Below the pieces are notes generated by a model. That model saw nothing but the letters and a program-made list of their open reading frames with translations. It was not told the DNA's origin and ran no database searches. From assembly GCF_048403405.1 (NCBI RefSeq), contig NZ_CP183129.1: a DNA stretch of 64,000 nt; one strand, written 5' to 3'. The first letter of the stretch is position 1; every line of letters starts with the position of its first letter. Shown piece after piece: positions 2,131 to 31,295 of this stretch. This DNA is from Escherichia coli (GTDB lineage: Bacteria; Pseudomonadota; Gammaproteobacteria; Enterobacterales; Enterobacteriaceae). The translations under genes were made by a program, and so were the position numbers.

Positions 2131-3030
2131 ATGTTTTCTGGGCTGTTAATCATTCTGGTTCCCCTGATTGTGGGTTACCTCATTCCTCTTCGCCAAAAAG
2201 CTGCATTAAGAGTTATTAATCAGCTATTAAGCTGGATGGTTTACCTTATTCTCTTTTTTATGGGTATCAGTCTGGCGTTTCTCGATAACCTCGCCAGTAA
2301 CCTGTTGGCGATTCTGCATTATTCTGCCGTCAGTATTACCGTTATTTTACTGTGTAATATTGCCGCCCTTATGTGGCTGGAGCGAGGCCTGCCATGGCGC
2401 AATCACCATCAGCAAGAAAAACTCCCGTCGCGTATTGCGATGGCGCTGGAGTCGCTAAAACTGTGCGGCGTAGTAGTGATTGGTTTTGCCATTGGCCTGA
2501 GTGGACTGGCTTTCTTACAACATGCGACCGAAGCCAGTGAATACACCTTAATTCTGCTACTTTTCCTCGTCGGTATTCAGTTGCGCAATAATGGCATGAC
2601 CTTAAAGCAGATTGTCCTTAATCGCCGGGGAATGATTGTCGCCGTGGTGGTGGTTGCCAGTTCATTAATTGGTGGTTTAATTAACGCCTTTATTCTTGAT
2701 CTTCCCATCAATACCGCGCTGGCAATGGCCTCTGGTTTCGGCTGGTATTCTCTTTCCGGTATTTTATTGACTGAATCTTTTGGTCCGGTAATCGGGAGCG
2801 CGGCGTTTTTTAATGATTTGGCCCGTGAGCTGATTGCTATTATGTTGATCCCCGGGCTGATTCGCCGCAGCCGCTCTACTGCACTGGGCTTATGCGGTGC
2901 CACATCAATGGATTTCACCCTGCCCGTTCTTCAACGTACTGGCGGGCTGGATATGGTCCCGGCGGCGATTGTTCACGGTTTTATTCTTAGTCTGTTAGTG
3001 CCGATCCTCATCGCCTTTTTCTCTGCATAA
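2131..3030 (+). CDS. lysO: lysine exporter LysO (YbjE)
   Basis: Track ORF 2083-3030; product from internal ATG 2131 (MFSGLLIILVPLIVGY...) is 299 aa, a multi-pass membrane protein matching YbjE/LysO. Confidence 0.85.
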   Translation: MFSGLLIILVPLIVGYLIPLRQKAALRVINQLLSWMVYLILFFMGISLAFLDNLASNLLAILHYSAVSITVILLCNIAALMWLERGLPWRNHHQQEKLPSRIAMALESLKLCGVVVIGFAIGLSGLAFLQHATEASEYTLILLLFLVGIQLRNNGMTLKQIVLNRRGMIVAVVVVASSLIGGLINAFILDLPINTALAMASGFGWYSLSGILLTESFGPVIGSAAFFNDLARELIAIMLIPGLIRRSRSTALGLCGATSMDFTLPVLQRTGGLDMVPAAIVHGFILSLLVPILIAFFSA

Positions 3031-3063
3031 TACCTCTCTGGCGGTAGATCCCTGCCGCCAAAA

Positions 3064-3077
3064 TTGCGCTAAATCAA
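3064..3077 (+). promoter_or_regulatory. putative FNR binding site in the hcp promoter
   Basis: ttgcg-ctaa-atcaa matches the FNR consensus TTGAT-N4-ATCAA (perfect right half-site) about 100 nt upstream of hcp, an anaerobically induced gene. Confidence 0.4.
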
Positions 3078-3135
3078 TCTCCCTTAAAGTTGCACAAAAA
3101 ATCCCTTTTATCCCCGCGTTAAGCGTCTTAACCTT

Positions 3136-3158
3136 AAACATGCATATTAAATATAACT
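3136..3158 (+). promoter_or_regulatory. putative NsrR-type operator overlapping the hcp core promoter
   Basis: AT-rich imperfect dyad aacatgcatattaaatataactt containing an ATGCAT half-site, as expected for NsrR-repressed hcp. Confidence 0.3.
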
Positions 3159-3173
3159 TTAAAAGGTGTGATC

Positions 3174-4826
3174 ATGTTTTGTGTGCAATGTGAACAAACT
3201 ATCCGTACTCCGGCAGGAAACGGCTGCTCATACGCGCAGGGGATGTGTGGTAAAACGGCGGAAACCTCTGACCTTCAGGATTTACTCATCGCGGCGCTGC
3301 AAGGGCTTTCGGCCTGGGCGGTAAAAGCGCGTGAATACGGCATCATCAACCACGATGTAGACAGCTTTGCGCCACGCGCATTTTTCTCAACCCTGACCAA
3401 CGTTAACTTCGATTCTCCGCGTATAGTCGGCTACGCTCGTGAAGCGATTGCCCTGCGCGAGGCGCTGAAAGCACAATGCCTGGCTGTAGATGCCAACGCC
3501 CGCGTCGATAACCCGATGGCTGACCTGCAACTGGTGAGCGATGATCTCGGCGAGCTGCAACGTCAGGCAGCAGAATTTACCCCTAACAAAGATAAAGCGG
3601 CGATTGGCGAAAACATTCTCGGCCTGCGCCTGCTGTGCCTGTATGGCCTGAAAGGTGCGGCGGCCTATATGGAACACGCACACGTTCTCGGTCAATACGA
3701 CAATGATATTTACGCCCAGTACCATAAAATCATGGCGTGGCTGGGGACCTGGCCTGCCGATATGAACGCGCTTCTTGAGTGTTCAATGGAAATCGGCCAG
3801 ATGAACTTCAAAGTGATGAGCATTCTGGATGCAGGCGAAACCAGTAAATACGGTCACCCGACGCCAACCCAGGTCAACGTCAAAGCGACGGCGGGTAAAT
3901 GCATTCTGATTTCCGGTCACGATCTCAAAGATCTCTACAACCTGCTGGAACAGACCGAAGGCACGGGCGTTAATGTCTACACCCACGGCGAAATGCTGCC
4001 TGCGCATGGCTACCCGGAGCTGCGTAAATTCAAGCATCTGGTCGGTAACTACGGCAGCGGCTGGCAGAATCAGCAAGTGGAGTTCGCTCGTTTCCCTGGC
4101 CCCATCGTGATGACCTCGAACTGCATCATCGACCCAACCGTAGGCGCTTATGACGATCGTATCTGGACCCGCAGCATCGTTGGCTGGCCGGGTGTGCGTC
4201 ATCTGGATGGCGAAGATTTCTCTGCGGTCATCGCCCAGGCGCAACAAATGGCGGGCTTCCCGTACAGCGAAATTCCGCACCTGATCACCGTGGGCTTTGG
4301 TCGTCAAACGCTGCTTGGCGCAGCCGATACGCTGATTGATCTGGTAAGCCGTGAAAAACTGCGTCATATCTTCCTGCTTGGCGGCTGTGACGGCGCACGC
4401 GGCGAGCGTCACTACTTCACCGATTTCGCCACCAGCGTGCCGGATGACTGTCTGATCCTGACTCTCGCCTGTGGTAAATATCGCTTTAACAAACTCGAGT
4501 TTGGCGATATCGAAGGTCTGCCGCGTCTGGTAGATGCTGGTCAGTGTAACGATGCTTACTCAGCGATTATTCTGGCGGTAACGCTGGCAGAGAAACTGGG
4601 CTGCGGAGTCAACGATCTGCCGCTGTCGCTGGTGCTCTCGTGGTTTGAACAGAAAGCGATTGTCATTCTGCTGACACTGCTTTCTCTGGGTGTGAAAAAT
4701 ATCGTCACCGGCCCGACTGCACCAGGTTTCCTGACACCAGATCTGCTGGCGGTGCTGAACGAGAAATTCGGCCTGCGTTCTATCACCACTGTTGAAGAAG
4801 ACATGAAGCAACTGTTGAGCGCGTAA
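3174..4826 (+). CDS. hcp: hybrid cluster protein / hydroxylamine reductase
   Basis: Translation [28 protein letters not shown]... with N-terminal Cys cluster; 550 aa from ATG 3174. Confidence 0.95.
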
Positions 4827-4837
4827 GGAGTTTGTCG

Positions 4838-5806
4838 ATGACGATGCCAACGAATCAATGCCCGTGGCGGATGCAGGTTCATCACATTACGCAAGAAACG
4901 CCGGATGTGTGGACGATTTCCCTGATTTGCCACGATTACTACCCATATCGCGCCGGGCAATATGCACTGGTCAGCGTGCGTAACTCAGCGGAAACGCTGC
5001 GTGCTTACACCATTTCCTCCACGCCAGGCGTGAGTGAATACATCACCCTGACTGTGCGGCGGATTGATGACGGTGTCGGCTCCCAGTGGCTGACGCGCGA
5101 TGTAAAACGCGGTGATTATCTCTGGCTTTCGGACGCGATGGGGGAATTTACCTGCGATGATAAAGCAGAAGATAAATTCCTGTTGCTGGCGGCAGGCTGC
5201 GGCGTCACGCCGATTATGTCGATGCGTCGCTGGCTGGCGAAGAACCGTCCGCAGGCCGATGTGCAGGTGATCTACAACGTGCGTACGCCGCAGGATGTGA
5301 TTTTCGCCGATGAGTGGCGTAACTATCCGGTAACGCTGGTGGCGGAAAATAACGTTACCGAAGGCTTTATCGCTGGTCGTCTCACTCGCGAACTGCTGGC
5401 AGGTGTCCCTGATTTAGCCTCACGTACCGTGATGACCTGTGGCCCTGCTCCATATATGGATTGGGTAGAGCAGGAAGTGAAAGCGCTCGGCGTGACGCGT
5501 TTCTTTAAAGAGAAATTCTTCACCCCAGTAGCGGAAGCGGCGACCAGCGGTCTGAAATTCACCAAACTGCAACCGGCACGAGAATTTTACGCCCCGGTTG
5601 GCACCACGCTACTGGAGGCGCTGGAAAGCAATAACGTTCCGGTTGTCGCCGCCTGCCGCGCAGGTGTTTGCGGCTGCTGTAAGACGAAAGTGGTTTCCGG
5701 TGAATATACGGTGAGCAGCACAATGACGCTGACCGACGCCGAAATCGCTGAAGGTTACGTACTGGCCTGCTCCTGCCATCCGCAGGGGGATTTGGTTCTC
5801 GCATAA
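4838..5806 (+). CDS. hcr: NADH oxidoreductase for Hcp (FAD/2Fe-2S)
   Basis: Translation MTMPTNQCPWRMQVHH... with C-terminal CRAGVCGCCK ferredoxin motif; AGGAG RBS 7 nt upstream of ATG 4838; track start 4832 is a TTG two codons upstream. Confidence 0.93.
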   Translation: MTMPTNQCPWRMQVHHITQETPDVWTISLICHDYYPYRAGQYALVSVRNSAETLRAYTISSTPGVSEYITLTVRRIDDGVGSQWLTRDVKRGDYLWLSDAMGEFTCDDKAEDKFLLLAAGCGVTPIMSMRRWLAKNRPQADVQVIYNVRTPQDVIFADEWRNYPVTLVAENNVTEGFIAGRLTRELLAGVPDLASRTVMTCGPAPYMDWVEQEVKALGVTRFFKEKFFTPVAEAATSGLKFTKLQPAREFYAPVGTTLLEALESNNVPVVAACRAGVCGCCKTKVVSGEYTVSSTMTLTDAEIAEGYVLACSCHPQGDLVLA

Positions 5807-5938: not shown

Positions 5939-7657
5939 ATGAAACAAACGGTTGCAGCTTATATCGCCAAAACACTCGAATCGGCAGGCGTGAAACGCAT
6001 CTGGGGAGTCACGGGCGACTCTCTGAACGGTCTTAGCGACAGTCTTAATCGCATGGGCACCATCGAGTGGATGTCCACCCGCCATGAAGAAGTGGCGGCC
6101 TTTGCCGCTGGTGCTGAAGCACAACTTTCAGGAGAACTGGCGGTCTGTGCCGGATCGTGCGGCCCCGGCAACCTGCACTTAATCAACGGCCTGTTCGATT
6201 GCCACCGCAATCACGTTCCGGTACTGGCGATTGCCGCTCATATTCCCTCCAGCGAAATTGGCAGCGGCTATTTCCAGGAAACCCACCCACAAGAGTTATT
6301 CCGCGAATGTAGTCACTATTGCGAGCTGGTTTCCAGCCCGGAGCAAATCCCACAAGTGCTGGCGATTGCCATGCGCAAAGCGGTGCTAAACCGTGGCGTT
6401 TCCGTTGTCGTGTTACCGGGCGACGTGGCGTTAAAACCTGCGCCAGAAGGGGCAACCTCGCACTGGTATCATGCGCCACAGCCTGTCGTGACGCCGGAAG
6501 AAGAAGAGTTACGCAAACTGGCGCAACTGCTGCGTTATTCCAGCAATATCGCTCTGATGTGTGGCAGCGGCTGCGCGGGGGCGCATAAAGAGTTAGTTGA
6601 GTTTGCCGGGAAAATTAAAGCGCCTATTGTTCATGCCCTACGCGGTAAAGAACATGTCGAATACGATAATCCGTATGATGTTGGAATGACCGGGTTAATC
6701 GGCTTCTCGTCAGGTTTCCATACCATGATGAATGCCGATACGTTAGTGCTGCTCGGCACGCAATTTCCCTACCGCGCGTTCTACCCGACCGATGCCAAAA
6801 TTATTCAGATTGATATCAACCCAGCCAGCATCGGCGCGCATAGCAAGGTAGATATGGCGCTGGTCGGCGATATCAAATCAACCCTGCGGGCATTGCTGCC
6901 ACTGGTGGAAGAAAAAAACGATCGCAAGTTTCTGGATAAAGCGCTGGAAGATTACCGCGACGCCCGCAAAGGGCTGGATGATTTAGCTAAACCGAGCGAG
7001 AAAGCCATTCATCCGCAATATCTGGCGCAGCAAATTAGTCATTTTGCCGCCGATGACGCTATTTTCACCTGTGACGTTGGTACGCCAACAGTATGGGCAG
7101 CGCGTTATCTGAAAATGAACGGCAAGCGTCGCCTGTTAGGTTCGTTTAACCACGGTTCGATGGCTAACGCCATGCCGCAGGCGTTGGGTGCGCAGGCAAC
7201 CGAGCCGGAACGTCAGGTGGTCGCCATGTGCGGCGATGGCGGTTTTAGCATGTTGATGGGCGATTTCCTCTCAGTAGTGCAGATGAAACTGCCGGTGAAA
7301 ATTATCGTCTTTAATAACAGCGTGCTGGGCTTTGTGGCGATGGAGATGAAAGCCGGTGGCTATTTGACTGACGGCACCGAACTACACGACACAAACTTTG
7401 CCCGCATTGCCGAAGCGTGCGGCATTACGGGTATCCGTGTAGAAAAAGCGTCTGAAGTTGATGAAGCCCTGCAACGCGCCTTCTCCATCGACGGTCCGGT
7501 GCTGGTGGATGTGGTGGTCGCCAAAGAAGAATTAGCCATTCCACCGCAGATCAAACTCGAACAGGCCAAAGGTTTCAGCCTGTATATGCTGCGCGCAATC
7601 ATCAGCGGACGCGGCGATGAAGTGATCGAACTGGCGAAAACAAACTGGCTAAGGTAA
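5939..7657 (+). CDS. poxB: pyruvate oxidase (ubiquinone-dependent, ThDP/FAD)
   Basis: 572-aa translation [32 protein letters not shown]... with ThDP motif GDGGFSML. Confidence 0.96.
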
Positions 7658-31121: not shown

Positions 31122-31164
31122 AACTGAAGTTGCCCTGAAAATGAAATTTTTTTGCACAACCGCA

Positions 31165-31197: not shown

Positions 31198-31276
31198 GCC
31201 ACTGCTTTTCTTTGATGTCCCCATTTTGTGGAGCCCATCAACCCCGCCATTTCGGTTCAAGGTTGGTGGGTTTTTT
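31198..31276 (+). ncRNA. rybB: RybB small RNA (sigma-E-dependent, Hfq-binding)
   Basis: 79-nt sequence gccactgcttttctttgatgtccccattttgtggagcccatcaaccccgccatttcggttcaaggttggtgggtttttt matches RybB as I recall it, with intrinsic terminator (ccaacc/ggttgg + U6); lies between ybjL and rcdA as in E. coli. Confidence 0.9.
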
Positions 31277-31295
31277 GTTATCTAAAATTTATCTA

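Follow-up and report, generated by a model that had tools for sequence, protein, structure and literature searches.

FNR and NsrR sites in an Escherichia coli hcp-hcr promoter agree with the known regulatory architecture of the operon

Introduction

The stretch of DNA analyzed here, hereafter the window, spans 64,000 nucleotides of Escherichia coli contig NZ_CP183129.1 (NCBI RefSeq assembly GCF_048403405.1) and contains the genes lysO, hcp and hcr in the order found in E. coli. The lysO (ybjE) stop codon occupies positions 3028-3030, and a 143-bp gap (3031-3173) precedes the hcp ATG at 3174. On the forward strand, hcp (3174-4826) encodes the hybrid cluster protein, with 550 amino acids and a match of 816 bits to the NCBIfam hydroxylamine reductase equivalog, and hcr (4838-5806) encodes its NADH oxidoreductase partner (NCBIfam NADH oxidoreductase equivalog, 640 bits); hcr is in one transcript with hcp, the two genes constituting an operon. 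A consensus scan of 2900-3300 yields no terminator between lysO and hcp, so that transcription of lysO could continue into the hcp promoter. An Rfam scan of the whole window detects no RNA element in the lysO-hcp intergenic region and identifies only the RybB small RNA, elsewhere.

The hcp-hcr promoter, with its FNR activator site and its NsrR repressor site, is already known and well studied. An alignment of hcp upstream regions from eight enterobacteria revealed exactly two conserved elements, the FNR site and the then-predicted NsrR site (Rodionov et al. 2005, PMC1274295). Salmonella mutated in nsrR shows a 284-fold rise in hcp mRNA (PMC2884951), nitrate treatment has been found to induce hcp 43.7-fold (PMC5320621), and a plasmid carrying a Phcp::lacZ fusion, pNF383, serves as an NsrR-dependent reporter of nitric oxide (PMC9052748).

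In this work we analyze the regulatory architecture of the hcp-hcr promoter in the window, following up a sequence-only reading that had assigned to it anaerobic and nitrosative-stress control by FNR and NsrR and had proposed to check this assignment by scanning with matrices for both regulators.

Materials and methods

The position weight matrix (PWM) for FNR was compiled from 61 ChIP-seq-supported sites in Table S6 of Myers et al. 2013, leaving out the hcp and aqpZ/ybjD sites. The NsrR PWM was derived from 25 sites of the 11-1-11 type listed in Table 4 of Mehta et al. 2015, with hcp left out. Scores were compared with those in shuffles of the whole window and in 5000 local shuffles of the intergenic region (3031-3173). 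For the comparative analysis, one genome per species was scanned, which provided 80 hcp loci spread widely over enterobacterial genera; protein identities were 89-99%. Enough upstream sequence was available for 78 of these 80 loci, which together with the window make up a set of 79 promoters, all of them distinct.

Results

The FNR-type site TTGCG-N4-ATCAA that had been read from the sequence is present, as TTGCG-CTAA-ATCAA, at positions 3064-3077 (TTGCGCTAAATCAA, centre 3070.5, no strand assigned). Eight of the 10 consensus positions in TTGAT-N4-ATCAA are matched, with a perfect right half and a left half that reads TTGcg. With up to two mismatches allowed, the window contains 49 matches to the bare consensus and its shuffles 35.8 +/- 5.6; this is chance level, and the consensus count is therefore unusable as evidence alone. 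Taken by itself, such a count suits the reading that the FNR and NsrR motifs arose by chance or from the composition of AT-rich promoter DNA and that neither protein binds them. The FNR PWM contradicts that reading. With 12.7 bits, the site at 3064-3077 ranks fourth among the 63,987 positions scored, a score attained by 1.58 +/- 1.23 sites per 64 kb in window shuffles and in only 14 of the 5000 local shuffles (p ~0.003). Its non-consensus left half, TTGCG, makes the hcp site a weak member of its class, placed in the lowest 8% of the PWM training sites.

The identical 14-mer has been characterized in K-12, where Myers et al. 2013 (PMC3688515) give the hcp site as TTGATTTAGCGCAA, the reverse complement of the sequence in the window, with a PatSer score of 13.11 and an ln(p) of -11.6 that passes their threshold of -10.75. 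The leave-out PWM and the published PatSer score thus both identify 3064-3077 as an FNR site at calibrated thresholds. The same study reports a ChIP-seq and ChIP-chip peak over K-12 hcp, detected by all four peak callers, and classifies the operon in Category 1, directly activated by FNR; its Table 1, which cites Filenko 2005, positions the site at -72.5. By analogy with this identical K-12 sequence, FNR occupancy of, and activation from, the hcp promoter of the window are supported.

Two higher-ranking matches correspond to known ChIP sites, indicating that the matrix behaves sensibly. The top match, TTGACGCACATCAA at 56641-56654 (16.3 bits), equals the ybiY/fsaA FNR ChIP-seq site of Myers 2013 (PMC3688515); this site was in the training set and is located 27 bp upstream of a forward-strand ORF of 308 amino acids. 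The third, TTGCCCTAAATCAA at 798-811 (13.8 bits), lies between ybjD and aqpZ and corresponds to the K-12 aqpZ/ybjD FNR ChIP-seq peak, for which the published site is TTGATTTAGGGCAA with an ln p of -12.42 (PMC3688515). It shares 13 of its 14 positions with the hcp site, whereas the flanks of the two sites are unrelated. About 60 bp upstream of 798-811 we observed a NarL-like 7-2-7 match, TACGCCTAAAGGATTA, at 723-738; no NsrR operator was seen beside this FNR site.

The NsrR operator is an imperfect dyad of 23 bp and 11-1-11 type, AACATGCATATTAAATATAACTT, composed of AACATGCATAT, a central T and AAATATAACTT; it occupies 3137-3159 (no strand assigned) and ends 14 nt before the hcp ATG. The AT-rich, ATGCAT-containing dyad that the sequence-only reading had placed close to the start codon is this element, with ATGCAT at 3140-3145, although its end falls at 3159 and not at 3158. 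A strict NsrR consensus with up to three mismatches has no match in the window, the operator included, because the right half AAATATAACTT is degenerate, and the PWM was used instead. Scored in this way, the operator qualifies as an 11-1-11 inverted repeat resembling AAGATGCATTT-N-AAATGCATCTT. It is the best match in the window at 26.5 bits, followed by a match at 18.8 bits, and outscores 96% of the training sites; its score was attained neither in 200 window shuffles (best score 23.6) nor in the 5000 local shuffles.

In the genome of CFT073, whose hcp operator carries T at position 3143 of the window numbering, Mehta et al. 2015 (PMC5320621) rank this operator as the second-best 11-1-11 site genome-wide, with an ln P of -23.87 against a threshold of -14.28, and place the NsrR ChIP-seq summit 22 bp upstream of the hcp start codon. 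NsrR occupancy and derepression at the operator of the window, which carries C at this position, are supported by analogy with these orthologues bearing the T allele. With both matrices, therefore, the proposed scan returned high scores for the hcp sites, and the published thresholds are passed.

A separate NsrR-like sequence, AAGTTGCCCTGAAAATGAAATTT at 31127-31149, is the fourth-best match to the NsrR PWM (16.8 bits; a 64-kb shuffle is expected to yield about 0.1 matches of at least 16.7 bits). It is located 52-74 bp upstream of RybB (31201-31279, forward strand; Rfam RF00110, 104 bits), just upstream of the -35 element GAACTT of the RybB sigma-E promoter. A 2025 study reports that NsrR represses rybB, yet finds no robust binding to its promoter in vitro (PMC12249550). 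The sequence at 31127-31149 is a candidate NsrR site.

Across the 79 promoters, mean identity to the window is highest for the FNR site (3064-3077, 99.1%), followed by the NsrR operator (3137-3159, 92.9%), a NarL/NarP-like 7-2-7 element (3031-3046, 85.8%), a second NsrR-like 23-mer (3087-3109, 75.7%), the 3' coding sequence of lysO (69.8%) and the spacer at 3110-3136 (56.4%). The FNR 14-mer is identical in 69 promoters, the remainder carrying the variants TTGCGTTAAATCAA (six genomes), TTGAGCTAAATCAA (two) and TTGCGCTATATCAA (two), and TTGCG, the left half that departs from the consensus, is retained in all but two genomes. Measured from start to start, the FNR site and the operator are 73 bp apart in 76 genomes and 72 bp apart in the other three, whereas the distance from the operator to the ATG varies between 12 and 23 nt. 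The leader thus tolerates insertions and deletions and the interval separating the activator site from the core promoter does not, as would be expected if helical phasing matters.

This conservation bears out the expectation that the hcp promoter can serve as an internal check of conserved regulatory architecture. The near-invariance of both sites and their fixed spacing also add to the PWM ranks and shuffles in contradicting chance matching, as do the ChIP-seq peaks on orthologous sequence (PMC3688515, PMC5320621), and we give almost no credence to the idea that the motifs are fortuitous and unbound. The interpretation of hcp-hcr as controlled by FNR and NsrR is supported jointly by the leave-out matrices, the footprint across 79 genomes and the published peaks.

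The position of the core promoter can be approached from that of the FNR site. Adding the published distance of 72.5 bp (Myers 2013 citing Filenko 2005) to the site centre at 3070.5 puts the inferred transcription start at 3143 on the forward strand. The hexamer TAACCT at 3129-3134 would then span -14 to -9 and is the presumptive -10 element. The pattern TAnnCT is kept at this position in 75 of the 79 genomes (TAACCT in 42, TAATCT in 22, TACCCT in 10 and TACTCT in one). A consensus scan of 2900-3300 finds no consensus sigma-70 promoter, and there is no recognizable -35 element; the combination of a weak -10 with the lack of a -35 or a consensus promoter points to an activator-dependent promoter. 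With a start at 3143 the operator would extend from about -6 to +17. By the same arithmetic, NsrR at hcp would be positioned at '+6'.

The core promoter is not fixed by sequence alone, given the outcome of the consensus scan, and several -10-like hexamers lie within the operator. The same regulators could hence act in another geometry, in which the -10 element sits inside the AT-rich dyad (CATATT at 3143-3148 or TATAAC at 3152-3157), transcription starts 10-20 nt downstream, NsrR covers the -10 element and FNR binds at about -85 to -95. Such an arrangement is at odds with the published FNR position of -72.5 (PMC3688515, citing Filenko 2005) and with the retention of TAnnCT at 3129-3134, and if transcription began at about 3160-3165, hardly any leader would precede the Shine-Dalgarno sequence. 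We regard it as improbable and retain the start at 3143 as the working assignment.

A different sigma factor has also been linked to this promoter. In glucose minimal medium, Myers 2013 (PMC3688515) detects no enrichment of sigma-70 at hcp by ChIP; the study states that hcp depends on sigma-E, citing Rhodius 2006, and a paper of 2025 includes hcp in the RpoE regulon. If hcp-hcr were driven mainly by a sigma-E promoter, the FNR and NsrR sites would be secondary. Repression by NsrR in a medium lacking nitrate and nitrite is, however, a simpler explanation for the missing sigma-70 signal, and in the main text of Rhodius 2006 we saw no reference to hcp. Inspection by eye upstream of hcp shows no promoter of the GGAACTT-N16-TCAAA kind, whereas the rybB promoter does display GAACTT-N16-TCTTA, and the dependence of hcp on FNR and NsrR is strong and documented (PMC3688515, PMC2884951, PMC9052748). 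Control chiefly by sigma-E is consequently very improbable, and we continue with an FNR-activated, NsrR-repressed promoter.

The candidate NarL/NarP site, TACCTCT-CT-GGCGGTA, begins at the first base after the lysO stop codon and occupies 3031-3046 on the forward strand, with two mismatches to TACYYMT-NN-AKRRGTA; the window contains seven such matches against 2.27 expected. Its right heptamer, GGCGGTA, is nearly invariant across the 79 genomes, and a 7-2-7 element with up to three mismatches is found at the same offset in 47 of them, with shifts of 1-2 bp in others. The centre of the site, 3038.5, would correspond to -104.5 for a start at 3143. Chismon et al. 2010 reportedly place a NarL/NarP site of the hcp promoter at -104.5, with which this arithmetic agrees. 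Nitrate and nitrite probably provide additional stimulation through the 7-2-7 element at 3031-3046. Control of hcp-hcr by NarQ/NarP was noted by Rodionov 2005 (PMC1274295).

Between the FNR site and the inferred -10 element lies the weaker NsrR-like 23-mer AAGTTGCACAAAAAATCCCTTTT (3087-3109, no strand assigned, centred at about -45). It is the third-best match to the NsrR PWM in the window at 16.7 bits, a score with 0.1 matches per 64 kb in window shuffles that was reached in 7 of the 5000 local shuffles, and its left half, AAGTTGCATTA, is listed by Mehta 2015 as a third 11-bp motif at hcp (PMC5320621). Its score rises from 16.7 bits in the window to 17.7 in K-12, 21.1 in CFT073 (where the sequence is AAGTTGCATTAAAAATCTCTTTT) and 25.8 in Trabulsiella, tracking the dinucleotide at 3095-3096 in the E. 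coli strains. Over the 79 genomes the lowest score is about -19, the highest 25.8 and the median 9.1, and we accordingly rejected a second NsrR site as a family-wide feature. At best, 3087-3109 is a candidate auxiliary NsrR site restricted to certain lineages; its conserved A-tract could equally be docking DNA for the alpha-CTD.

The promoter itself is typical of the species. A 301-bp promoter query matches E. coli ST2747 with 100% identity and nearly all of 5,424 matching complete E. coli genomes with 95-99% identity (about 98% among the matches listed). The window also carries poxB (5939-7657) as an intact ORF of 572 amino acids, and the ST2747 record CP007394, identical in other respects, annotates poxB as frameshifted; the window may therefore represent another member of this lineage.

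Relative to K-12 MG1655, the gene order, the FNR 14-mer, the NarL/NarP 7-2-7 element, the operator position and the spacing are the same, and four bases differ within 3000-3200, three of them intergenic. The first, at 3028, falls in the last lysO codon. Positions 3095-3096 read CA in the window, TG in K-12 and TT in CFT073, and position 3143 is C in the window and T in K-12 and CFT073, the left operator half containing ATGCAT in the window and ATGTAT in the two other strains. Exact identity over 3110-3176 is limited to 118 of 5,422 E. coli records, including UTI89, NU14, UM146 and ST2747, and ATGCAT is thus a minority allele in E. coli. The C is worth 1.1 bits more than the T on the NsrR PWM. 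Both bases are present at 3143 across genera in the set of 79 promoters, which fits the consensus gATGyAT of Rodionov 2005 (PMC1274295). This polymorphism within the NsrR operator coincides with the inferred transcription start.

Discussion

The analyzed region is very probably the promoter that natively drives hcp-hcr in E. coli, working as described for K-12. In the mechanism we envisage, an anaerobic [4Fe-4S] FNR dimer would bind TTGCGCTAAATCAA, centred 72.5 bp upstream of the start, and from this upstream, class I-type position would recruit RNA polymerase to a core promoter with a weak -10 element and no -35. NsrR carrying its Fe-S cluster would occupy 3137-3159, covering the transcription start and the first transcribed bases, and would thereby block initiation sterically. 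Nitric oxide, arising from nitrate or nitrite respiration or from the host, would nitrosylate the NsrR cluster and release the protein from the DNA, allowing the FNR-activated promoter to fire, with a nitrate and nitrite input probably supplied by NarL/NarP at 3031-3046. A further input has been suggested, in that Seth 2012 reportedly describes a possible OxyR site at hcp.

This logic of anaerobic activation, a boost by nitrate and nitrite and repression relieved by nitric oxide is shared with other promoters under the same regulators, namely ytfE and hmp with their NsrR operators and nrf and nir with their FNR and NarL/NarP sites. The ytfE operator represents a near-perfect form of the 11-1-11 motif found at hcp (PMC5320621). 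The arrangement of sites differs: most FNR-activated promoters have their site near -41.5 (class II), in contrast to -72.5 at hcp (PMC3688515), and at the nrf promoter NsrR reportedly binds an upstream site and not the start site. The CFT073 hcp promoter shares with the window the 23-bp 11-1-11 operator, there located under a ChIP peak, and differs from it in the T allele and in the stronger NsrR match of the upstream 23-mer.

These strain differences invite a more elaborate proposal, in which 3087-3109, flanked by the FNR site and the -35 region, would be a second, lineage-variable operator where NsrR also blocks contact between FNR and polymerase, the alleles at 3095-3096 (CA, TG or TT) and 3143 (C or T) would tune the sensitivity of hcp to nitric oxide between E. 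coli lineages, and TTGCG would have been selected for low affinity. As a combined statement we consider this speculative and rather unlikely.

Conclusions

The value of this analysis is that of a control. The known sites for FNR and NsrR are both retrieved by simple matrices built without hcp, validating the scanning approach, and the small allelic differences reported here may be of interest to users of Phcp as a nitric oxide biosensor. The present data leave the current understanding of hcp-hcr control unchallenged and indicate that the regulatory architecture of this textbook nitrosative-stress operon is intact in the present strain.
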